Virus record (IMG/VR): IMGVR_UViG_3300025288_000050
Span: 1-38,134 of that record
Direction: 5' to 3' (one strand)
DNA: 38,134 bases
DNA from: a virus
The position numbers and the translations under genes are program-made. Below the pieces are notes generated by a model, which worked only from the letters and a program-made list of their open reading frames with translations, was not told the DNA's origin and ran no database searches. Shown in pieces: positions 511 through 38,134 of the stretch (position 1 is its first letter; each line of letters starts with the position of its first letter).

Positions 511-950
511 TTAACTCAATTCCCCAACCATTGCAGCACCGCAAGGATTGGGCTGGCACGAGCTTCCACAGGCAGACTGCCATAAGACGGTGGAGATAGC
601 GTCTAACTATCCCAGTGGCCAGGGGGCAGAAGACAGGTCGGTGCAGACCTTGCCCCCTGTGGGATTAACCCCTTCACACGGGCTTGGGTGGAAAATTTAT
701 CAGCCAGAGCTGGTATGAATTCTCCTCCACCTAAGTCCATGTGAGGTGGTTAGTCGCTTGCTTCCAGTGATTGTCTGGCAGAGCCGGATTTTGGAAAGGT
801 TTGTTATGGTGGGTTTTATACCTGTCCGTTGTGAAGAACCCGACCGCTGGAAATAGGCAAGTTAACCCTTCTCCCACCCTCTCGGATGTAAAGAGACGGT
901 CAAGCTCTTTATCGACGCACCACATCCGAGGTGGTAGGAGGGAGGTTAAG
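511..950 (+). ncRNA. Candidate structured RNA / long structured 5' leader of the mini-protein operon
   Basis: About 440 nt, visibly GC-rich, with no ORF that has an SD. Stable hairpins: 619-661 (8-bp GGGGGCA/TGCCCCC helix plus inner AGGTC/GACCT), 727-749 (CCACCT/AGGTGG) and 764-778 (CCAG/CTGG). A long-range 12-13-bp helix pairs 720-732 with 929-942, abutting the SD at 941-945. Confidence 0.35.
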
Positions 951-3936: not shown

Positions 3937-4460
3937 AATTAAACTTAGGTTGCGGTGGCGACCATAAGGCGGGGTATATAAATGTAGATATTGACCCGAC
4001 TAGCCAACCGGATTTAGTAGCCGATGTTTTAAACCTACCCTACCAAGAGGGAGGTGTTGATGAGATAGTGGCCGAGCACCTTCTGGAGCATTTAACGAGG
4101 GAAGAAGGATTAAAGGCTCTAGCTCATTGGTCTAGTTTGCTTAAGCCCGGAGGGATTATCGAGATTGAAACTCCAGATATTAAACGGACTTGCTACGAGT
4201 TTTCACAATTGACAAATGAAGAGATAAAAAAATTGCATGTCAATTTTAATTCCCCGGCCTATGAAATTGTCGGGCGTGTCCTAAACATTTACGGAAACCA
4301 ACGAGATCCATGGCAGTTCCATAAATGGGGTTATTGGTTAGAGTACTGGGAGGCGATAGTTTCCAATTTAAACCTTACTATAATCGACCATTCTTCCGGA
4401 AAGACTTATCATGAAAAAGAAGAACCATGCTTATGGATAAGACTCCAAAAATTGCCTTAA
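3933..4460 (+). CDS. Class I SAM-dependent methyltransferase
   Basis: MKLNLGCGG motif I near the N-terminus, followed by VDEIVAEHLLEHL. ATGA-type overlap with the upstream GT. Confidence 0.8.
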   Translation: MKLNLGCGGDHKAGYINVDIDPTSQPDLVADVLNLPYQEGGVDEIVAEHLLEHLTREEGLKALAHWSSLLKPGGIIEIETPDIKRTCYEFSQLTNEEIKKLHVNFNSPAYEIVGRVLNIYGNQRDPWQFHKWGYWLEYWEAIVSNLNLTIIDHSSGKTYHEKEEPCLWIRLQKLP

Positions 4461-5392
4461 TTGGAGGTTATAAATTTGCGGCCTTTGCCCACTCTTGGAA
4501 GGGACAGATGCAAGCGTTAAAAAAAATGGACATCCCTCACATCATCCTCGATTCCCGCGATGATTCTTTAGAGCATATTGTCGGTGAGTGTACAGCGTTT
4601 CAGCCGGACATTATTTTGCACGGCCTATCCGATTCGTTCAACACTGATATGATTGACCAATTAAGGGCGAATTGCCCCAAAGCCAAACAGATCTGGTGGT
4701 ATTGTGATTATGCGGCAATAGGGACTGGTGATTTGGAAAATTGTAATGTCGCCAAGAAAAAGCAAACGGGGAATCTTGATTTCATGCTTCTTACCAATTC
4801 GGAACAGATACCCTACTACGAAGAAACCCTAGGCATTCCTTGCTATTTTTTACCTCAAGCGGGATTGCTAATGGACGAGTTACCACCGATTGATGAGAGG
4901 TATTCAAACATTGATGTTTTGTTTGTCGGTAACCTTGAGAAAAATCCAATTCATTCTAAACGCACTCAATTTCTAAATACGATTAAAGATGCTTGCCAAG
5001 CGGGGGGACTGAACTTTCAGGTGTTTCCCCAAGGGATGAATTTAAAGGATTGTTATGACACCCAACATTTAATTTATCGTAATGCTAAGGTAGCTTTGAA
5101 TCTATCCCACCTAAATGATAAAAAGAATTACTCCTCCGCTCGTCTATGGTACGGGGCCTGTGTTGGTGGACTCATGCTTTCAGCAAATTATCCGGGCATC
5201 AGAGACCAATTCCCTATGGTCCCAACATTTAATTGGCCAGATGTCTTGGAATGTTTGGAGAAAATAAGATATTTAATTGAACATCAAGAGGAGATGGAGA
5301 AACTTCGATCTGAGATTTTCACTCACGCTCAAAAATATCACACCTATTTAAATAGGTTTAAAAGCATCTTTGCTTTATGCCGTGGTCAGTAA
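4427..5392 (+). CDS. CgeB-like glycosyltransferase (GT-B, Glyco_trans_1_2/DUF3880-like)
   Basis: DVLFVGN...KRTQFLN...AKVALNLSH...SARLWYGACVGG...YHTYLNRF follows the CgeB-family pattern as I remember it. Confidence 0.65.
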   Translation: MLMDKTPKIALIGGYKFAAFAHSWKGQMQALKKMDIPHIILDSRDDSLEHIVGECTAFQPDIILHGLSDSFNTDMIDQLRANCPKAKQIWWYCDYAAIGTGDLENCNVAKKKQTGNLDFMLLTNSEQIPYYEETLGIPCYFLPQAGLLMDELPPIDERYSNIDVLFVGNLEKNPIHSKRTQFLNTIKDACQAGGLNFQVFPQGMNLKDCYDTQHLIYRNAKVALNLSHLNDKKNYSSARLWYGACVGGLMLSANYPGIRDQFPMVPTFNWPDVLECLEKIRYLIEHQEEMEKLRSEIFTHAQKYHTYLNRFKSIFALCRGQ

Positions 5393-14141: not shown

Positions 14142-14807
14142 TTATTCAGAAAATTCAGAAGCATAAAATCCGTCCCAAGAATCGATGTTACGCTGACCCA
14201 AACCGAGTTTATATTCCTCATTCATCTTTTGAATTTCCGTCTCAGCTAGACGCATGCCAGTAGCATCGCCATCACGCTGTTTCAAGTCCCGAACCATTAT
14301 CTGCACTAGGTTAGGATGCAACTCATCTGGAGTAACAGGGATTTGCGTGGTGGTTGCAAGAGCAGCTGGGCGAGCAATATACCAGTAACTCAAACCACTC
14401 GTTACACTAGCGTCCGGAGTCGGATGCAGTTGAATAATACTGGCTGAATTGTCCGGTTGATTAATGAAAGTATATTTAGGTGCAGATTGAGATTCAGTCT
14501 CGGCATTTAAATTGGATATCTCATTCAAATCTTTACGATAAGCAACATAAGAATTTGAGCCATCATAACTTAACGTGACCTTCTTCAATTGAAGAATGTT
14601 TGATGCCAAGGTGTAAGCATTGGAGCCCGAAACCAGATTGATCGCTGTCCCCGGTTTCAACATGAAGTCCTGACGAAGACCGGAAACCATCTTCACCTGC
14701 TCTGAGATAGAGTCATTTAACAGACGATATAGTTGAGTATCACTAACATCACCGGTATCTAAGTTGGCAATGAAACGGACTTTATCGAAAATTTGTTGTA
14801 CAGTCAT
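14142..14807 (-). CDS. Putative head-tail adaptor
   Basis: 221 aa. The N-terminus FDKVRFIANLDTGDVSDTQLYRLLNDS resembles connector/adaptor N-termini. First gene of the tail block. Confidence 0.4.
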   Translation of the reverse strand: MTVQQIFDKVRFIANLDTGDVSDTQLYRLLNDSISEQVKMVSGLRQDFMLKPGTAINLVSGSNAYTLASNILQLKKVTLSYDGSNSYVAYRKDLNEISNLNAETESQSAPKYTFINQPDNSASIIQLHPTPDASVTSGLSYWYIARPAALATTTQIPVTPDELHPNLVQIMVRDLKQRDGDATGMRLAETEIQKMNEEYKLGLGQRNIDSWDGFYASEFSE

Positions 14808-14817
14808 ATTTTTTAAA

Positions 14818-14917
14818 CTTCCTCTTAATCCACCAATCTTGAAGTAACTCCCTAAAAGCCTATGCCAGCTAAGCGAATGGTGTCAGAGACTCATTAAATT
14901 GGTGGATTAAGAGGAAG
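14818..14917 (-). repeat. Perfect 20-bp inverted repeat with a 60-nt loop (intergenic stem-loop)
   Basis: cttcctcttaatccaccaat (14818-14837) is the exact reverse complement of attggtggattaagaggaag (14898-14917). Immediately flanked by a GGGGG-aaatt-CCCCC hairpin (14917-14931). Confidence 0.9.
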
Positions 14918-15036
14918 GGGGAAATTCCCCCTTAAATTATTCTTCCGGTTCACCAACAACTTCGGACTCTTCGAGAGGACTGTCAACAGTCGGTTCGTCG
15001 ACAGGTTCCAAGACTTCTTCTTCCATAGTCTTTTTT

Positions 15037-15234
15037 TTACTTATTAACAAAATCAGGGACAGGGCTTAACTCAGAAACCCGGGCGAATTTGGCTAGGGCT
15101 GCTAAGACTAAACCTACTACTATTTTAACACTTTCTGCCTCAATCTTAAAGACTGAAATTAAAAACCATGCGACGAGGACGACGACCAAGAGCTCTAAGA
15201 CGTGCATTAAGGTACTGAATAATTCGGCTTTCAT
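15037..15234 (-). CDS. Holin-like small membrane protein
   Basis: 65 aa with two hydrophobic segments (LELLVVVLVAWFLISVF, IVVGLVLAALAKF). Directly downstream of the peptidase gene. Confidence 0.55.
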   Translation of the reverse strand: MKAELFSTLMHVLELLVVVLVAWFLISVFKIEAESVKIVVGLVLAALAKFARVSELSPVPDFVNK

Positions 15235-15246
15235 AAATTTAGATTT

Positions 15247-16272
15247 TTAACGATTAATTAAACTTTCAGGATTAGTGCGTTCAAAATTGAAGTCGAATAA
15301 ATGCTTTCCAGTGCGCCTCCAATTAAAACAATCATTTATAACGTCCCCAGGTTTCCAAATCGGCCACGGTTTATAATAGTGGGAATTGTACGAATCGTAT
15401 GAAATGGCATTGACATAGACTGTCCAAAACTTTCCGGCCGCTTCCCACACACTCTGGTTGTTAAATTTCTTAAACTCGCGCTCCAATTCGTTTGCCACTT
15501 CTTTTTCCTTGCTCAAATTCCTAGGCTTACCATAATGGTCAAGGCAATATTGAAACTCATTTTGTTGGGTTTCTTCTTTTTTCTTACGCCAATCCGGCGG
15601 TAAATCAAGTATGCACCAAGCGTTGTAAAATTCGTAGCTTGCATCCAGGTGATGATACCCGTTAAAACCTAACTCGCGCTCCAAACTGTCAAAAACAATC
15701 CAACTGCCTTCGTCCCAGCCGACCAGTAACACAGCGTGGTTATCCCTAACCTGATTCCGTTTCGCACGATATTCAAAGTAGCCACGGGTTGCATCAACCC
15801 CAACCAGCAAAGCCCCGTATTGAACCACTGCCGATTGTGTTTCTTCGCTGTTATTAGCGACCCTGGCATAACCTGGAATTTTCCATTTACCGACCAACTG
15901 GTCAGAGCGAAGCTTCAAATCTTCCCATTCGGCCAAATCGTATAAATCGCTAGGCATTGGCAATTCTTCATAATCGACCAATCCTTTCGTTCTCGCCGCC
16001 TCAAGAATTGCCCTGAAATATGTCCCTTTCTTATTGCCACCGGACTTAAAGAATAAATCCGCTTGGCTGTATTCGTCTTCAAACTCGCTTTTGGTCTCAA
16101 TCAACTTTGTCCCAGAAAACGCCGCACAGAACGGCCAACCCCCCTGATTCTCAAACCTTAGGTTTGGAATTATGAATTGACTAGGCACTTCAACCGATGA
16201 TCCGGCAACCGGTAATTCATCTAACCACAAATCTCGCTTGTCTATTGGGTTTGGTAGAAGGCCGTAGTTCAT
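15247..16272 (-). CDS. Papain-like (C1 family) cysteine peptidase, candidate endolysin
   Basis: VPSQFIIPNLRFENQGGWPFCAAFSG parallels the papain Q...C-x-x-W-A-F-S active-site block. DNHAVLLVGWDEGSWIVFDS parallels the His block. ATG 16272 preferred over TTG 16281. Confidence 0.6.
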   Translation of the reverse strand: MNYGLLPNPIDKRDLWLDELPVAGSSVEVPSQFIIPNLRFENQGGWPFCAAFSGTKLIETKSEFEDEYSQADLFFKSGGNKKGTYFRAILEAARTKGLVDYEELPMPSDLYDLAEWEDLKLRSDQLVGKWKIPGYARVANNSEETQSAVVQYGALLVGVDATRGYFEYRAKRNQVRDNHAVLLVGWDEGSWIVFDSLERELGFNGYHHLDASYEFYNAWCILDLPPDWRKKKEETQQNEFQYCLDHYGKPRNLSKEKEVANELEREFKKFNNQSVWEAAGKFWTVYVNAISYDSYNSHYYKPWPIWKPGDVINDCFNWRRTGKHLFDFNFERTNPESLINR

Positions 16273-16281
16273 AAGAAACAA

Positions 16282-18992: not shown

Positions 18993-20198
18993 CTAAGTCA
19001 GATAAGTGTAACGAACGCCATCACCGTTTACTGTCGAATCGATATAAGCCGTAGCTAGGTTGGTGATTTCAAGTTCCACGGCTTCACCGGCGGCTAAGAG
19101 CACACCCGTTCCAGTTGCTTCAGTTGCATCGACACCCGAAGCTCCGATAGCAATCAAACCCGTGTTATCAGTTTGAGCTTGAATAATAACTTTCTTACAA
19201 GCCGTCGAACTAGCTAAAACCACGTCAGTGCCGGCAGTCGTTACTGTCGTGACGCCGTGACCAATTCCAGTTGGAATAGCCACAGCGGTCGAAATTGCAC
19301 TTGAATTCGTTTCAGTAATCGCACCGGAGGAAACAACTACTGCTCCTGTGTTGCAGGCTGTAATCTTTCCATCAATCGAGGTCGTGTCCCCGGCAATCGT
19401 CGCTAAGTTGCCGGCTTCCGTAGCAAGGCCGGTCGTATTACAAGCTGTAATTTTCGTGTCGAGCGAGGTTGTATCTCCAGCAATCGTTGCCAAGTTGCCG
19501 GCTTCCGTAGCAAGGCCGGTCGTATTACAAGCTGTAATTTTCGTGTCGAGCGAGGTTGTATCTCCAGCAATCGTTGCCAAGTTGCCGGCTTCCGTAGCAA
19601 GGCCGGTCGTATTACAAGCTGTAATTTTCGTGTCGAGCGAGGTTGTATCTCCAGCAATCGTTGCCAAGTTGCCGGCTTCCGTAGCAAGGCCGGTCGTATT
19701 ACAAGCTGTAATTTTCGTGTCGAGCGAGGTTGTATCTCCAGCAATCGTTGCCAAGTTGCCGGCTTCCGTAGCAAGGCCGGTCGTATTACAAGCTGTAATT
19801 TTCGTGTCGAGCGAGGTTGTATCTCCAGCAATCGTTGCCAAGTTGCCGGCTTCCGTAGCAAGGCCGGTCGTATTACAAGCTGTAATTTTCGTGTCGAGCG
19901 AGGTTGTATCTCCAGCAATCGTTGCCAAGTTGCCGGCTTCAGTCGCTGCTCCAGTCGGGAGAGCCGAAGCTTGAACATCAACATAAAGTCCGTTAGCTCC
20001 AACAGTAGCTCGCGTATCATCAGTTGCGTTTTTAATTTCAACTGCTCCAATTTCAATGTCACCAGCGGAAAGGGTGAATGAACCGTCAGCATAAACATGC
20101 TGACGTCCGTACTCGTCAATGTACAAATCAACTTCCTGACCGTCAGCCACCGCAGAGGGGGTAGAGGTTTTAGCTCGAAGATCTAACTTAGTAATCAT
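18993..20198 (-). CDS. Thr/Ala-rich structural protein with seven 29-aa tandem repeats (fibre/decoration candidate)
   Basis: 401 aa. TEAGNLATIAGDTTSLDTKITACNTTGLA x6 identical plus one variant. Heptad-like L/I spacing. Globular N- and C-terminal parts. Confidence 0.7.
   Translation of the reverse strand: MITKLDLRAKTSTPSAVADGQEVDLYIDEYGRQHVYADGSFTLSAGDIEIGAVEIKNATDDTRATVGANGLYVDVQASALPTGAATEAGNLATIAGDTTSLDTKITACNTTGLATEAGNLATIAGDTTSLDTKITACNTTGLATEAGNLATIAGDTTSLDTKITACNTTGLATEAGNLATIAGDTTSLDTKITACNTTGLATEAGNLATIAGDTTSLDTKITACNTTGLATEAGNLATIAGDTTSLDTKITACNTTGLATEAGNLATIAGDTTSIDGKITACNTGAVVVSSGAITETNSSAISTAVAIPTGIGHGVTTVTTAGTDVVLASSTACKKVIIQAQTDNTGLIAIGASGVDATEATGTGVLLAAGEAVELEITNLATAYIDSTVNGDGVRYTYLT
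19349..19945. repeat. 87-bp tandem repeat array, six nucleotide-identical units (19408-19929) plus diverged flanking partial units
   Basis: ccggcttccgtagcaagg recurs at 19411, 19498, 19585, 19672, 19759 and 19846 (exact period 87). The units are identical by eye. Confidence 0.95.
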
Positions 20199-28464: not shown

Positions 28465-28504
28465 GAGTGGCTGAGTGGCTGAGTGGCTGAGTGGCTGAGT
28501 GGCT
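28465..28504. repeat. Octanucleotide tandem repeat (GAGTGGCT) x5
   Basis: Five exact head-to-tail copies inside the 345-bp non-coding gap between the terS-like gene and the zinc-finger/terL genes. Confidence 0.95.
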
Positions 28505-29191: not shown

Positions 29192-29305
29192 ATAACTTAA
29201 TCATACCATAAAAAAATTTCGCGCGCCTTTTAACCAATAGGACATCACGGACACCAGTCAAACTTGTTCAAATTCCAACCATAAAATGTATTGCACTCTT
29301 ATATA

Positions 29306-29334
29306 ATTATGCGCGCGACATATCACTCTGTCGA
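29306..29334 (-). promoter_or_regulatory. Candidate leftward sigma70-like promoter (TCGACA-17-CATAAT)
   Basis: The reverse complement of 29329-29334 is TCGACA and that of 29306-11 is CATAAT, with a 17-nt spacer. It lies about 105 nt upstream of the terS-like ATG, and the -35 overlaps a TGTCGA/TGTCGC motif. Confidence 0.25.
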
Positions 29335-29582
29335 CTGTCGCGGATTATTTTGCTAATTTTAGCAAAATGCGACAGGCGCGACAGGCGCGACACCATTTTT
29401 GATAATCCTAATAAATAAAATTTTACCTATAACCTTTTCTCTCTTTTATAATTTATATCCAATTAGAAAAACAGCGTCGCGCCTGTCGCGCCTGTCGCAT
29501 TTTGCTCAACCTAGCCAAAAAAAGCGCGACAGGTCTTTTTTTCACCTGTCGCGCCTGTCGCATTTTGCTCAACCTAGCCAAA
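29315..29582. promoter_or_regulatory. Iteron/operator array: about 12 TGTCGC/GCGACA hexamers, palindrome, AT-rich core and a 38-bp direct repeat
   Basis: GCGACA at 29369, 29378 and 29387 (9-bp phase) faces (T/C)GTCGC at 29475, 29484 and 29493 across an ~80-bp core of about 78% A+T (29393-29473). Palindrome TTTTGCTAA-tt-TTAGCAAAA lies at 29348-29367. cctgtcgcgcctgtcgcattttgctcaacctagccaaa occurs at 29482-29519 and 29545-29582. Confidence 0.8.
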
Positions 29583-29650
29583 TTATCTTCTTATGGTCAG
29601 TTTTTTTTGGTAGTTATCCACAGCATAATTGTTGCGGTCTGTGTATACTC

Positions 29651-29679
29651 TTGACAAGATTATGACACTATGATATATT
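29651..29679 (+). promoter_or_regulatory. Rightward early promoter, TTGACA-17-TATATT with extended -10 TG
   Basis: TTGACA at 29651-56, TG at 29671-72 and TATATT at 29674-79. Followed by AAGGAG and ATG 29702. Confidence 0.6.
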
Positions 29680-34232: not shown

Positions 34233-34395
34233 GTAAAGTGAGGTGTGCTGACGAGATTTATGCATCGTCTGCATACTCTACTGATCAAGACGTCCGCTAT
34301 TAACTCCAAAACCTGCGGGTTAGATCATCTCCTGTAGTGCGGTTTAACAGCAACCCTTGATTGGTGGAGCATGTACATGTAATTAGAACTTCTCT

Positions 34396-34548
34396 ATGTC
34401 TTTTTATTTCGAATACTTGTCGGTTCTTAAAGAAATAGAGCCTGAAGCCTATGAGGTTTTAGGCAAAATGATTAAAGGTTCCTGTTGCCCGCATGAACGG
34501 TTGGATGCTTTTGGAACCTGCCTCGTTTGTTATTTAGACATCACTTAA
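34396..34548 (+). CDS. Cys-rich mini-protein (50 aa)
   Basis: MSFYFEYLSVLKEIEPEAYEVLGKMIKGSCCPHERLDAFGTCLVCYLDIT. The stop is 2 nt before the next ATG. Confidence 0.35.
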   Translation: MSFYFEYLSVLKEIEPEAYEVLGKMIKGSCCPHERLDAFGTCLVCYLDIT

Positions 34549-34550
34549 AT

Positions 34551-35273
34551 ATGGCGGGGTTCAAACTAAATAAGCGTAACTATTTTAGTAAGAAGCGTCC
34601 GCATCTTTCGGTCTCACAAATTAATGATTATATTTTCAATCCAGAATATTACAAAGCTAGGTACATAAATCTTTCTATTACCACCAAAGTTACCGACGCC
34701 ATGAAACTCGGGACTTTAGTTGATGAATTATTAACTGAAGGGAAGACGCGATTGAAGCGGGGTAAGAAATCAAAAAAGCTGACCGAACACCAGTTGGAGA
34801 AAGTAGTTAGTGAAACTATCTGGGAACGCGGCCAAGCGATTGCAGAATTTGTTTCCAAACATCCGTTTTGGCAGTCCCTAATGGGAAAAAAGGGGGTGAA
34901 AAAACAGTTAATTTTGGAGGGGTTTTTGGATGGTTTATTGATTTGTGGTAAACCCGATTTGGTGATTGATCCCGACATCTTAATTGATTTGAAGGTTTCT
35001 GGAGCTACGCATGTTAAAAACCCAAATAAATGGCATTATCATTGTCTTGATATGGGTTATTACCGGCAATTTGCCATGTATAAAACACTTCTCGGGCAGT
35101 CTTTTGAGACCCCTTCATACCACCTAACGGTGTCCGAAACCGCTCCAGAGTTTTATGAACTGAAACTTTTCAAAGCTGATTATGAGTATGTCAAAATTGC
35201 CTTTGATGAGATTAAAGACGCCGTAAGTGGGATTAAGGAGGGGAAGTTCAACGCAAAAGAGTTAACTTTATAA
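34551..35273 (+). CDS. PD-(D/E)XK nuclease (RecB/Cas4-like exonuclease fold)
   Basis: GKPDLVIDPDILIDLKVSG gives D...D-x-K. Tyr-rich C-terminal part YYRQFAMY. ATG 34551 preferred over TTG 34527. Confidence 0.6.
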   Translation: MAGFKLNKRNYFSKKRPHLSVSQINDYIFNPEYYKARYINLSITTKVTDAMKLGTLVDELLTEGKTRLKRGKKSKKLTEHQLEKVVSETIWERGQAIAEFVSKHPFWQSLMGKKGVKKQLILEGFLDGLLICGKPDLVIDPDILIDLKVSGATHVKNPNKWHYHCLDMGYYRQFAMYKTLLGQSFETPSYHLTVSETAPEFYELKLFKADYEYVKIAFDEIKDAVSGIKEGKFNAKELTL

Positions 35274-35371: not shown

Positions 35372-36712
35372 ATGATCATGGAGATAAGCGGAAGGATAAT
35401 CTTAAGTCAACTGACAAAAAAAGCAGCCGATGATATTAAGTCGGCTTTAACTTTGGATAACCCGGCCTATTGGCGGGCAGTCAGGAAGAATCCGAAGGCA
35501 AAATACGCCTTGTCCCCAGTGTTTAAATATTATGTTGAAAAAGAAAATAAACTCATTGTCGGACGAGGACTTGAAGAACGAATTAAAATTTATTGTCGGG
35601 CAAACTTTACTCCATTACAAATCATTGATGCGCGGACTAAAACGCCTGCGGGAATTCAGTCTACGATTTCGCTACGTCCGTATCAGGTTGGAATTCCGGA
35701 GGAAATTGTTAAAAATTACACCGGAATTGTACGACTTGGGACGGGATTTGGAAAAACTATTATCGGACTTCGAGTCGCCGAACTCCTCGGACAAAAAACC
35801 TTGATTGTCGTTCCAACCTTAGACATTTTAAATCTATTCTATGAAGAAGTACAAAATTACTTCGGCACTCCTCCGGGTGTCATTCAAGGGAAAAACTTTG
35901 AGGTCAAAGATGTTACTGTGGCTACTATTCAGAGTCTTAAGAAAGCCGTCAATCGAGGCCTCCAGCCTGACGACTTCGGCACAATCATTGTTGATGAGTG
36001 TCACAAGTTTATCTCTAAGCAGGCACAAACCGTTTTTGAATATTTCACTCCAACTTACTTCTACGGACTCACTGCCACCGCAGACAGGTCAGACGGTCAA
36101 GGAAAAGCAATCGGATTTTATTTCGGGAATATTATCGTCTCTCGGGAACTTGAACAACACTCCCCAAAAGTTGAAATCGTTGAATACCCGGAAAAATATG
36201 ACGGGGTTGAATACTACGAAATCATCGAGGCACAAACCAAGAGTGAGGAAAGGAATAGACTTATCGTTGAAAAAGTGAAAGCGGAAATTAGTTCTGGGCG
36301 TAAGGTTTTAATCCTAACTAAAAGAATTGCCCATTATGAAATTATTAAGGAGAAACTTCTCGCTTCAAAAATCAAAAATGTCTTCACGCTTAACTCCAAA
36401 GATACTCGAAAAAATCGAGCCGAAAAACTTTTGGGCCTCCGTTCTGGGGAAACTGACTTTACTGTCCTTCTTGGCACTTTTAGTTTACTTGGCACTGGTA
36501 TCGACATACCTCGCTTGGATACTCTCATCCTTGCTGGCGATCTACGGAGTGAAGTTTTGACCAAGCAATCGGCCGGGCGCATTCGCCGTATCCTGACTGG
36601 CAAGAAGCAACCGAAAATAATTGATTTAGTGGACACTGGGAATAGAATATTGCACTATCAAGGAAAACAAAGGTCGAAGTTCTATAAAAGTGAAGGTTGG
36701 AAAATAATTTAA
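35372..36712 (+). CDS. Superfamily 2 DNA helicase (DEXH, ResIII-like)
   Basis: Motif I GTGFGKT, motif II IVDECH, motif III LTATADR and motif VI QSAGRIRR. Confidence 0.8.
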   Translation: MIMEISGRIILSQLTKKAADDIKSALTLDNPAYWRAVRKNPKAKYALSPVFKYYVEKENKLIVGRGLEERIKIYCRANFTPLQIIDARTKTPAGIQSTISLRPYQVGIPEEIVKNYTGIVRLGTGFGKTIIGLRVAELLGQKTLIVVPTLDILNLFYEEVQNYFGTPPGVIQGKNFEVKDVTVATIQSLKKAVNRGLQPDDFGTIIVDECHKFISKQAQTVFEYFTPTYFYGLTATADRSDGQGKAIGFYFGNIIVSRELEQHSPKVEIVEYPEKYDGVEYYEIIEAQTKSEERNRLIVEKVKAEISSGRKVLILTKRIAHYEIIKEKLLASKIKNVFTLNSKDTRKNRAEKLLGLRSGETDFTVLLGTFSLLGTGIDIPRLDTLILAGDLRSEVLTKQSAGRIRRILTGKKQPKIIDLVDTGNRILHYQGKQRSKFYKSEGWKII

Positions 36713-36719
36713 TTCCCCC

Positions 36720-36735
36720 ATCCCCCTTCGGGGAT
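36720..36735 (+). terminator. Short GC hairpin after the helicase gene
   Basis: atcccc-cttc-ggggat, 8 nt after the stop. No U-tract. Confidence 0.35.
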
Positions 36736-36843
36736 ACAATCTATTAGCGACTCAAGACTGCTAAGTCAAGGTCGCCTTCCTAAAAAGAATGGCATTTAGC
36801 TATTCTTAGGGGAGGTGGGGGAAGTAAAAAAAGGGAGAGTCAA

Positions 36844-37659
36844 ATGGCTAAGAAGGAAGAAGCCTTGGCATTGCGCGATGGTAAACCCAAGCACGGCACG
36901 ACCCGTATCGTTTCCTTGGACATCAATAAGGACAACGGCTCGGGGCCGAGAGCTCAGGTAATGCTCATCGGTGATGCCCACATCGGTTCGCCGCAGTGTG
37001 ATGAGGTGCTTTTGAAGCACAACATCGATCTGTGTCTCGAAAAGAATATTTACGTCATTTTGATGGGGGACATTGTTGAGTGTGCGACTAGAAACTCGGT
37101 CGGGGCTGGCGTCTATGAGCAATACGGAACGATTGACGACCAGATTGACCGGGCAGTCGAGTTCTTTATCCCACTCGTCAAGCCTGGTCTGCTTCTTGGA
37201 AGCATTGCTGGGAACCATGAGGCACGCGGCTACAAGGACATTGGCCACAATCCAACCAAGAACATGTGCCGTTTGCTTCAAATTCCTTATTTGGGCCCGA
37301 ATAAACACTTCATCATGAAGGTCGGGAAGCAGACCTACACGCTCTATGTGACCCATGGCTCCTCCGGGGCAACCACCATCGGCGGGAAAATCAACTGTTT
37401 GATGCGCGTGGCCAAGAACACTACGGCCGAGATTGTCGCCCACGCCCATGTCCATGAGCTCTTATCCATTACTTTCTTGCACTTTGACTTCGTGCACAAC
37501 AAGAAGCGTTTCGGGTCAGTGCCTCGCTACGGGATTCTGACTGGCCATTTTCTTCGGTACGGTGGGTACGGACAAGAGAAGGACTTTCAACCTACTCGCT
37601 GCGGTTCGCCTCTCCTCATCCTCTGGGCAGACCGACACGAAATCCGCGTAATGACTTGA
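36844..37659 (+). CDS. Calcineurin-like metallophosphoesterase (nuclease or phosphatase)
   Basis: LIGDAHIG, ILMGDIVE, GNHE, VTHG and AHAHVHE are the five canonical metallophosphatase blocks. AGGGAGAG lies upstream of the ATG. Confidence 0.75.
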   Translation: MAKKEEALALRDGKPKHGTTRIVSLDINKDNGSGPRAQVMLIGDAHIGSPQCDEVLLKHNIDLCLEKNIYVILMGDIVECATRNSVGAGVYEQYGTIDDQIDRAVEFFIPLVKPGLLLGSIAGNHEARGYKDIGHNPTKNMCRLLQIPYLGPNKHFIMKVGKQTYTLYVTHGSSGATTIGGKINCLMRVAKNTTAEIVAHAHVHELLSITFLHFDFVHNKKRFGSVPRYGILTGHFLRYGGYGQEKDFQPTRCGSPLLILWADRHEIRVMT

Positions 37660-37693: not shown

Positions 37694-37715
37694 GGGCGGA
37701 GCCACAAATCCGCCC
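37694..37715 (+). terminator. 7-bp GC hairpin after the phosphoesterase gene
   Basis: gggcgga-gccacaaa-tccgccc, followed by cttcaatt. Confidence 0.35.
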
Positions 37716-37735
37716 CTTCAATTAAATCTATACCT

Positions 37736-37864
37736 ATGCCTAAATCAGAAGCTTTCAATCTCTATAAAACTCTAAAGGATGACCCTGAAGCGGTAATCAA
37801 ATGGGCGGAGAGTGAGATAGCCGAATATCAAAAGTTAATCGAGCTGATTAAAAACAAAACCTAA
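37736..37864 (+). CDS. Hypothetical helical mini-protein (42 aa)
   Basis: ATG 37736 (MPKSEAFNLYKTLKDDPEAVIKWAESEIAEYQKLIELIKNKT). The TTG-extended track ORF would run through the hairpin. Confidence 0.4.
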   Translation: MPKSEAFNLYKTLKDDPEAVIKWAESEIAEYQKLIELIKNKT

Positions 37865-37893
37865 TTCTTAGATAACTAACTAACAAATATCTT

Positions 37894-38134
37894 ATGTCGC
37901 CCACAATTGAAATCTCAGAGGAAATATTAAACAAAATCAAAGAACAGTTAGGTGATGACTACAAGTTGAAAGAGCTTGATTGCCTTGATGACCTTATTGG
38001 TCAAAAATGGTTTTTCCGCACTGTTACCTATCACTGTGTGGGTAAAGTAGTTAAACGCTTTGGACAATTCTTCCAACTGGAAGATGCTTCTTGGGTAGCG
38101 GACAGTGGACGCTTTATGCAAGCCATTAAAGATG
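37894..38134 (+). CDS. Hypothetical protein, 5' part of a junction-spanning gene (continues at position 128 on the circular map)
   Basis: ATG 37894 opens MSPTIEISEEILNKIKEQLGDDYKLKELDCLDDLIGQKWFFRTVTYHC..., which runs off the window end in the same frame as ORF 1-231. No domain recognised. Confidence 0.6.
   Translation, partial: MSPTIEISEEILNKIKEQLGDDYKLKELDCLDDLIGQKWFFRTVTYHCVGKVVKRFGQFFQLEDASWVADSGRFMQAIKD
38008..38134. repeat. Terminal direct repeat identical to 1-127
   Basis: Same 127-nt string as the window start. Confidence 0.95.

Follow-up and report, generated by a model that had tools for sequence, protein, structure and literature searches.

A candidate modular leader with a predicted Shine-Dalgarno-masking hairpin ahead of a mini-gene cluster in a groundwater phage

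RNase III hairpins occur in the polycistronic mRNAs of phages, among them the R sites of T7 and the N leader of lambda, where cleavage relieves an inhibitory structure around the ribosome-binding site (RBS). In phage T4, an upstream helix on long early transcripts covers the Shine-Dalgarno (SD) sequence or AUG of genes e, soc, 49 and I-TevI and so controls their translation (PMC3014915). Here, positions 511-950 of the virus record IMGVR_UViG_3300025288_000050 (38,134 nucleotides (nt), analysed over its full length and referred to below as the window) are compared with these systems. The region is free of open reading frames (ORFs) and precedes a cluster of seven tiny genes, the first of which encodes mini-protein 1 (mp1). 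Our best reading, held with modest confidence, is that 511-950 is an orphan and partly dispensable member of the known phage leaders that mask an RBS or serve as processing sites. More specifically, folding models suggest an intercistronic leader built of modules, with a final hairpin that gates translation, a proposal to which we assign a probability of roughly 0.4. The features on which it rests are the following.

511-950, + strand: ORF-free, strongly folding intercistronic region, delimited by minimum free energy (MFE), six-frame stops and the lack of any Rfam, tRNA or tmRNA match
862-949, + strand: H7, a long hairpin whose 3' arm consists of the mp1 SD and spacer (-39.0 kcal/mol, z -4.03)
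937-953, + strand: start region of mp1 as read from the sequence, with SD GGAGGGAGG (937-945), spacer TTAAG and ATG (951-953), paired in the ensemble

Folding of the region and occlusion of the mp1 start

The + strand of 511-950 folds with an MFE of -187.6 kcal/mol, as compared with -147.1 ± 5.6 kcal/mol for 100 dinucleotide shuffles, none of which folded as well (z -7.26). The - strand reaches -174.6 kcal/mol (z -5.40), and the dense self-complementarity reported in an initial annotation of this DNA is thereby borne out. At minimum energy the strand forms seven local elements in a row, H1-H7, and the folding signal comes from these independent hairpins, not from one globally folded RNA. The absence of a credible ORF, likewise noted initially, was also confirmed. 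All six frames hold TAA plus TAG and/or TGA stops, so that no single codon reassignment opens a frame. In addition, the closest relative, denoted L001 (IMGVR_UViG_3300025018_000165, an IMG/VR contig of 60.9 kb from a sample of the same type), differs from the window by two 1-nt indels inside 511-658, which a coding frame there would not tolerate. An alternative genetic code or hidden long ORF is ruled out by these mixed stops and indels, and the conserved coding frame that the initial annotation had named as potential counter-evidence is not present. A pseudogene remnant was rejected as well, since tblastx of 511-950 against 85 related loci returned only matches with E >= 0.3.

H7 closes the chain at its 3' end. 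Its stem of ~30 bp is built from stacks of 7, 5, 8 and 6 bp separated by single-base gaps and one internal loop. The 5' arm (TTAACCCTTCTCCCACC) is anti-SD-like, with the segment 866-874 reading CCCTTCTCC. AGGTGG at 929-934 and the mp1 SD pair locally with 862-881, and the 3' foot of the hairpin, GGTTAA (944-949), doubles as the SD-ATG spacer. In the ensemble, the probability of being unpaired is about 0-0.07 for positions 937-942 and 944-948. The predicted H7 fold thus places an SD and start in a stable helix with upstream sequence, as in the T4 genes listed above and in mobE of phage Aeh1, and in both settings the helix lies on a polycistronic read-through transcript of a phage. Unlike in T4, the stem is much longer (~30 bp), six further hairpins lie ahead of it, and the structure is here a prediction only.

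The initial annotation had offered a different account of the masked start, in which CCACCT (727-732) pairs either with AGGTGG at 744-749 in a local hairpin or with AGGTGG at 929-934, the latter pairing being extended to a helix (720-732 with 929-942) that closes a ~200-nt domain and touches the mp1 SD. The complementarities are real, and the 716-735 x 926-946 duplex is worth -20.0 kcal/mol. Nevertheless, both alternative helices have an ensemble probability of 0.0, as does a further helix proposed at 764-778 (764-767:775-778). The long-range pairing is absent from the ensemble because the competing local duplexes are stronger (677-695 x 721-742 at -24.6 and 861-885 x 926-946 at -24.7 kcal/mol), and CCACCT at 727-732 is held by 680-692 in a 13-bp helix with a probability of about 1.0. 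When the long-range helix is enforced, the MFE worsens by 22.4 kcal/mol, from -189.4 to -167.0 kcal/mol, which makes the proposed mutually exclusive, riboswitch-like helices thermodynamically negligible. Moreover, the segment 720-732 is missing from L001, which lacks 659-806 and carries an insert at 863-870 while keeping H1-H4 and H7, in conflict with a domain closed by 720-732:929-942; no aptamer family was matched either. A two-state switch is consequently regarded as extremely improbable. The locus resembles riboswitch and attenuator leaders in that the 3'-most helix of a 5' leader occludes the SD, but it lacks a competing fold of similar energy, a conserved aptamer and a terminator/antiterminator pair. 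The mp1 SD is indeed paired, as claimed, yet within H7, which is predicted to be a simple SD mask rather than a two-state switch. Of the large structured RNA or translational switch initially put forward, the non-coding character, the strong structure and the masked SD stand; the single domain and the two alternating states do not.

Under the preferred leader reading, 511-950 would act in cis as a string of independently folding stem-loops on a long + strand early transcript, which probably originates from a promoter at 29651-29679 and continues across the genome junction. This promoter is of the near-consensus sigma-70 type (TTGACA-17-TATATT with TG, 11/12), and because + strand genes run from it across the junction to ~6,030, the region lies inside a long early/middle transcription unit. 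A scan confined to sigma-70-like sites predicted no promoter within 511-950, and no intrinsic terminator was called there on either strand; together with the operon promoter, this implies read-through transcription. On the read-through mRNA, H7 would pair the mp1 SD and spacer with the anti-SD-like 5' arm, and ribosomes could not initiate at mp1 before the stem is opened or cut. The next two genes, encoding mp2 and mp3, would probably be silenced with it, via coupling, because their starts lie ~35 nt inside the preceding gene. H7 could be opened by an RNase III-type cleavage or by a helicase or other protein, or be avoided on a shorter transcript that does not include the 5' arm. H4, H5 and H6 would most likely serve as processing or stability barriers; alternatively, H5 and H6 may be relics of the head of an earlier "hairpin + mini-gene" cassette. 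As in the RNase III sites of T7 and lambda N, long near-continuous intercistronic stems (H5 ~40 bp, H7 ~30 bp) are found on an early transcript, and both exceed the ~20 bp of near-continuous double-stranded RNA that is necessary for, though not diagnostic of, such a site. Sequence similarity to those sites was neither sought nor found, and both a host RNase III and cleavage by it are hypothetical here.

The upstream hairpins and module exchange among near-identical variants

Six further elements precede H7 in the predicted fold:

523-552, 554-582 and 588-617, + strand: H1, H2 and H3, small stem-loops kept in L001
620-659, + strand: H4, G+C-rich two-tier hairpin of 9 + 5 bp (-25.4 kcal/mol, z -3.84)
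663-755, + strand: H5, imperfect hairpin of ~40 bp with feet GATTAACC...GGTTAGTC (-51.8 kcal/mol, z -7.49)
756-862, + strand: H6, three-way junction domain (-37.3 kcal/mol, z -3.20, 9 G-U pairs)

Taken singly, H1 (-12.8 kcal/mol, z -1.7), H2 (-8.4, z -1.2) and H3 (-10.6, z -1.7) are not significant relative to shuffles. H4 corresponds to the helix initially proposed at 619-661 and is well supported by the ensemble (pair probabilities 0.92-1.0, z -3.8). It was not called as a terminator, as no U-tract follows the stem and the next sequence is GUGGGAUUAACC; in L001 it is kept with a 1-nt insertion. The apical loops of H1 (AGCACC, with GCACC at 536-540) and H4 (GGUGCA, with GGUGC at 640-644) are perfectly complementary over 5 nt, in L001 as in the window, and could form a kissing-loop contact, although a chance match has a non-negligible probability.

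Leaving aside the microsatellite described below, no 110-nt fold on the + strand of the genome is more stable than that of H5 (-53.0 kcal/mol against a mean of -21.7 ± 7.1). Its stacks of 8, 7, 13, 5 and 6 bp are separated by single-nt interruptions, and the 13-bp core (680-692:726-738) has a probability of about 1.0. It shares with H7 the TTAACC...GGTTA feet and the 3'-arm motif CATnnGAGGTGGT (repeat D16, 738-750 versus 923-935, 85%). The recurrence of TTAACCC, which had drawn attention initially, is not an enrichment (6 copies in the window against 6.05 expected). Structure accounts for two of the three local copies: one forms the 5' foot of H5 and pairs with GGTTAG (748-753), the other forms that of H7 and pairs with GGTTAA (944-949). 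The 3' arms of H5 and H7 both contain the SD-like GAGGTGG, located at 743-749 in H5. This word was counted 6 times against 2.8 expected, and also occurs in an intergenic multi-branch fold at 36708-36828. The latter is closed by TTCCCCCATCCCC...GGGGAGGTGGGGGAA (-56 kcal/mol over 36700-36850) and lies directly upstream of the free SD of a phosphoesterase gene (36844).

The SD-like word in H5 raises the question of whether H5, too, is the SD-masking head of a gene, namely a 32-aa ORF running from TTG 758 to TAG 854-856 (LLPVIVWQSRILERFVMVGFIPVRCEEPDRWK), with 663-862 and 862-1169 as two tandem "hairpin + mini-gene" units. Such an arrangement would be compatible with the leader reading. GAGGTGG sits 8 nt before the TTG and inside the 3' arm, just as the mp1 SD does in H7, the two hairpins have their feet and 3'-arm motifs in common, and the downstream cluster includes a similarly small hydrophobic gene (mp5, 27 aa). 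Conversely, the ORF starts with TTG, has no homologue, lies inside the significantly folded H6 and is destroyed in L001, where the retained 807-870 is read in another frame; ORFs of this size are also expected by chance. Both the 32-aa gene and the tandem-cassette arrangement are very doubtful.

The two strands are not equivalent. The + strand folds better overall and contains 19 G-U pairs; mirroring the structure onto the - strand loses 58 kcal/mol, most of it in H5 (24 kcal/mol, 6 G-U pairs) and H6 (23 kcal/mol, 9 G-U pairs); the stability of H4 is symmetric. In addition, 7/8 of the arm mismatches in H5 are transitions that keep G-U pairing on one strand. The strand evidence leans towards RNA-level structure on the transcribed strand, decaying DNA palindromes being the less probable alternative.

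Copies of the region beyond the window were found only in L001 and in L089, a 2.8-kb contig of the Joint Genome Institute (JGI), by exact-word scans and protein-anchored searches. These are 97-100% identical to the window, and all known copies stem from one aquifer population. Two sites differ in L001:

659-806, + strand: polymorphic module, from blastn of the window against L001, replaced by 277 nt in L001
863-870, + strand: site at which L001 carries an inserted gene for a 243-aa DNA methylase, from blastn, with flanks TAACCCTT / TAACCCCT

Identity between L001 and the window amounts to 97-100% over 1-658, 807-870 and 863-2318. The replacement removes H5 and the 5' half of H6, and the H6 domain cannot form in L001 because only its 3' part (807-870) is retained. 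The 277-nt patch (L001 4835-5111) is 97.8% identical to window 34347-34622, and comprises a 50-aa ORF followed by the first ~25 codons of a PD-(D/E)XK nuclease gene, i.e. a truncated gene start. The methylase insert of 0.74 kb (L001 5175-5912) lies between the positions of H6 and H7 and is flanked by an imperfect 8-bp direct repeat; metagenome contigs show loose ends at 863/870. The source of the methylase gene could not be traced at the junction, its relatives being <=43% identical. An apparent inverted second copy in L001 was dismissed as an artefact, the sequence concerned (L002) being the reverse complement of L001 4671-5870. L001 retains H1-H4 and H7. Among its substitutions in H1-H3, A582G preserves a wobble pair, while C528A and C613A together with an inserted A break pairs. 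H7 is the sole long hairpin kept across all variants, even with the methylase gene inserted directly 5' of it; two substitutions in its 5' arm leave the L001 stem as good as or better than that of the window (-41.1 kcal/mol, z -5.84, compared with -39.0 kcal/mol). The existence of variants without H5/H6 and with a 0.74-kb insert speaks against a single global fold of all 440 nt.

Across 517-960, L089 shows no difference from the window; it has an L001-like upstream backbone and represents a third recombinant. The window form and the L001 form are found together, at similar depth, in the same groundwater runs, and only these two known haplotypes were detected as population variation across 8 groundwater runs. 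At a larger scale, the island comprising window 37706-38134 plus 1-2318 is 95-98% identical in nucleotide sequence to L001 3885-7374, as is a lysin-like gene (window 15232-16274, L001 7802-8840). The backbones are otherwise diverged, the neighbouring phosphoesterase genes showing ~51% protein identity. This pattern suggests that modules have recently been exchanged among phages of a single aquifer community.

The same polymorphism invites a DNA-level explanation, in which imperfect inverted repeats and recombination scars at a module-exchange hot spot, either decayed palindromes or footprints of mobile hairpins, have no function. Nowhere else are the otherwise 97-99% identical sequences as polymorphic as here (the 659-806 swap, the 863-870 insertion and 1-nt indels), the L001 replacement is a non-functional patch, both strands fold well, the arm mismatches have no significant strand bias, and the conservation of 511-658 (~97%) shows a substitution level no lower than that of the flanking genes. 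H5 and H7 also resemble repetitive extragenic palindromes (REP), miniature inverted-repeat transposable elements (MITEs), IS200-605 palindrome-associated transposable elements (PATEs) and integron attC sites as imperfect 90-nt hairpins with similar feet (TTAACC...GGTTAA) that border gene-sized insertions, and by sequence reading their feet match the attC R''/R' cores at 6/7 positions. Dispersed copies, as expected of a MITE or PATE, were not seen: the H5 21-mer/20-mer occurs only at this locus in IMG/VR, the JGI metagenomes and GTDB, nothing of the kind is repeated within the window, and there is hence no visible MITE-like family. No transposase, integrase, recombinase or reverse transcriptase was found among the ORFs scanned, some structural ORFs not being included, and the mini-genes differ from an integron cassette array in that they overlap without intervening hairpins. 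Furthermore, 440 nt of junk is rarely kept by compact phage genomes, 7/8 of the H5 arm mismatches keep G-U pairing on one strand, and H7 is placed exactly on the SD and has been kept through two rearrangements. In view of these points, a functionless relic is considered somewhat unlikely.

Search for relatives and weight of the leader reading

Covariation cannot be assessed within the population because all copies are at least 97% identical. Diverged homologues were therefore sought around the conserved 114-aa gene upstream of the region, which has 1,881 homologues in contigs of ~37-46 kb. The related-locus set comprised 80 IMG/VR loci around this gene and several assemblies, and 85 loci were searched. 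Neither nhmmer nor a covariance model of H1-H4 (R1) detected anything resembling 511-950 in these loci, and tblastx of the related loci found nothing resembling 511-950 or the mini-gene cluster DNA. On these grounds the island is taken as an accessory module specific to the present population. Likewise, blastn with the region gave no match among GenBank phages, and exact words were found in L001 only in IMG/VR, in L089 only in the JGI metagenome scan, and in no GTDB genome. The lack of covariation and of conserved structure in relatives, which the initial annotation held to speak against a structured RNA, is thus encountered in a weak form: diverged relatives were not found, and nhmmer and the H1-H4 covariance model were negative in the 85 loci.

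Kinship with GOLLD, ROOL, raiA, introns or riboswitches, suggested initially, found no support. Rfam 15 at gathering thresholds gave 0 matches over the entire window and noise at E<=10, where the sole match in 511-950 was MIR868 (16.4 bits against a threshold of 200), and ARAGORN reported no tRNA or tmRNA. The region shares with GOLLD and ROOL its location in a phage, a length of hundreds of nt and a high degree of predicted structure. It differs from them in that those RNAs are conserved across many genomes with covariation, whereas 511-950 is confined to a near-clonal population and partly dispensable.

These results also bear on a free-standing new class of non-coding RNA, in which H1-H6 (~350 nt) would be expressed or processed from the early transcript and act in trans, e.g. 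as a decoy or in anti-defence, with H7 as a separate operator. Bona fide structured RNAs reach z-scores such as the -7.3 obtained over 440 nt, the fold prefers the + strand in general and most of all in H5 and H6, the H1/H4 loop complement is unchanged in L001, and the region belongs to a GC-rich island that spreads horizontally. However, there is no Rfam family and no homologue in the 85 related loci, a variant without H5 and most of H6 is in circulation, no flanking promoter or terminator was predicted, H1-H3 singly fold no better than shuffles, and the loop-loop match has a chance probability of ~10-20% by estimate, not computation. We judge such an RNA improbable. Its most elaborate form is slightly less probable still: an autonomous, undescribed ~350-nt RNA (H1-H6, ~511-862) associated with the Cys-rich mini-protein operon on the mobile GC-rich island, acting in trans, e.g. 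as a decoy for a host RNA-binding defence factor or regulator, and perhaps compacted by the H1-H4 kissing loop.

Only H7 has a defensible function together with a possible analogue elsewhere. With a covariance model of H7 (R2) and 633 kb searched, the best non-self match was a hairpin in L003, a distant relative among the related loci (19.7 bits, E 0.097). Its outer stem aligns to H7, with TTAACC/GGTTAA becoming TTATCC/GGATAA and CCACC/GGTGG becoming CAGCC/GGCTG. The hairpin (L003 4295-4397) has a 20-bp stem (-51.2 kcal/mol, z -6.75) and hides GGAGGAGG 4 nt before an ATG. The setting is comparable: L003 carries the 114-aa gene, its protein 74% identical to that of the window, followed by a repeat ORF, one extra gene, ~200 nt of non-coding DNA and a GC-rich cluster of Cys-rich mini-genes. 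The gene behind the hairpin (4396-4602) opens the GC-rich part of that cluster, and its product weakly resembles the N-terminus of mp2 (CxxCxGLxGC, pairwise E 0.01). The L003 hairpin is marginal evidence, supportive of the leader reading and no proof of homology.

A second SD-masking case occurs within the window itself, at 14818-14917 on the - strand, where a perfect 20-bp inverted repeat holds in its 3' arm the SD AAGAGGAAG, placed 10 nt before the ATG of gene 14807..14142. The gap in which it lies (14808-15246, 440 nt) otherwise contains small uncalled ORFs, one of them holin-like and one acidic.

Several points weigh against the proposal that 511-950 is a translation-gating leader. What the analysis shows is the folding, the covered SD, a modular and partly dispensable make-up and the lack of coding capacity; transcription of the region, translational repression and any cleavage are what we infer here. 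In the T4 cases, late promoters inside or just before the structure give a shorter, translatable mRNA, whereas no promoter-like site was found inside or just before the 3' arm of H7 (860-950). Any role of H1-H6 is putative, and 300 nt of extra structure exceeds the needs of an SD mask. H7 is slightly more stable on the - strand, and the ratios of G-U to A-C arm mismatches (5:2 in H5, 3:2 in H7) are not significant and leave RNA- versus DNA-level selection unproven. The similarity between the L003 hairpin and H7 is partly forced by complementarity to an SD. Finally, SD-masking duplexes are not enriched family-wide (85 real versus 74 shuffled at <= -22 kcal/mol, among 1211 starts), and SD masking would therefore be a case-by-case device.

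Genome setting, neighbouring genes and significance

The last 127 bases of the window (38008-38134) are identical to the first 127 (1-127), and the window is therefore a complete, circularly closed phage genome, circularly permuted and with a unique size of 38,007 bp. The 114-aa gene spans the junction (37894-38134, then 128-231). The phage derives from groundwater/aquifer metagenomes. Its major capsid protein is of the SU10 type and its large terminase of the T4 type, and it also encodes a D5-like primase-helicase, a Prim-Pol, a PD-(D/E)XK nuclease, an SF2 helicase, a metallophosphoesterase and several glycosyl- and methyl-transferases. No cultured relative was found, the sole GenBank match being a 45% partial one to an uncultured Caudoviricetes record. 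The region 511-950 lies between two neighbours:

235-510, + strand: hexamer microsatellite, read as a (Ser-x)n ORF and forming the upstream boundary (Tandem Repeats Finder, 41 x GGTCTA)
951-2426, + strand: seven overlapping or abutting mini-genes from the ORF list, encoding 27-98 aa, six of them Cys-rich

The GC-richness that the initial annotation ascribed to the ORF-free part is real (52.7%) but not specific to it. The microsatellite (48.6%) and the mini-gene cluster (49.1% over 951-2300) share it, compared with 43.7% in the remaining genome and 31-39% immediately downstream, and GC-richness marks the whole island (~240-2300).

In the mini-gene cluster, the mp2 and mp3 starts overlap the preceding gene by ~35 nt. 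None of the mini-proteins belongs to a Pfam or PHROG family, and alignment-based scans of IMG/VR and GTDB added nothing new. For mp1, only the self-match was found among 5.8 billion proteins, and a word search with mp2 gave no match. An exhaustive HMMER search with mp3 returned one relative, of 54% identity, on the 871-nt contig L090 (ena:ERZ28593311). This visibly G+C-rich contig is the only diverged relative of the cluster and codes for mp2-, mp3- and mp4-like genes (~52% aa identity) and an mp5-like hydrophobic peptide. It begins at the mp2 start, so that the leader lies outside the contig; its G+C-richness is consistent with an origin of the island in a higher-GC phage. Within mp2, just upstream of mp3, a near-consensus sigma-70-type promoter is present at 1280-1308 (TTAACA-17-TATAAT, TG, 11/12), from which mp3 and the genes after it could be expressed without involvement of the H7-masked leader.

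The GGTCTA "microsatellite" proved to be a conserved (Ser-Arg/Gly/Trp)n gene, present in 53/74 loci (the window and 73 related ones) as an ORF of 29-101 aa that starts 0-20 nt past the 114-aa gene. The protein has a short hydrophobic N-terminal part, after which Ser-x is repeated up to 44 times. Both serine codon families are used (TCG 420, TCT 406, TCA 163, AGC 210, AGT 90), which indicates a protein-level constraint. The x residues are R/G/W in the proportion 479/364/363, corresponding to codon NGG, which looks like a constraint at the nucleotide level. Some phages carry 2-3 tandem copies, and the length changes in hexamer steps between near-identical phages. Examples outside the window include L003 3071-3307, L007 1061-1400 and ~50 further loci. 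No literature on this repeat gene was found, and it is a more widely conserved and more surprising oddity than 511-950.

The strongest fold of the genome lies at 29300-29600 (200-nt z -11.6 and -9.0), where 66-nt inverted repeats (85% complementary) are combined with recurring GCGACAGGCGCGACA iterons. This segment separates the divergent late and early units and adjoins the promoter at 29651-29679. It is likely an origin or master regulatory region, and a far better candidate for a replication origin than 511-950, for which this role is less likely. Elsewhere, an 87-nt unit repeated 6.5 times with 98% identity (19377-19940) codes for 29-aa protein repeats within gene 18993-20198, and a perfect (GAGTGGCT)x5 array occupies 28465-28504, in an intergenic position upstream of the small-terminase-side genes.

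The very high folding z-scores found here serve as a warning that, in phage intergenic DNA, such scores can reflect stacked independent hairpins. If the leader reading is correct, the practical value would be modest, as a candidate translational operator for reporter work. For phage biology, the locus would provide a natural example of such control outside the T4 and lambda model phages, in an uncultivated phage of the SU10-capsid type, where a long SD-masking hairpin gates a horizontally acquired block of tiny, zinc-ribbon-like early genes. It would also indicate that such leaders are modular and may act as landing pads for new genes, e.g. the methylase.

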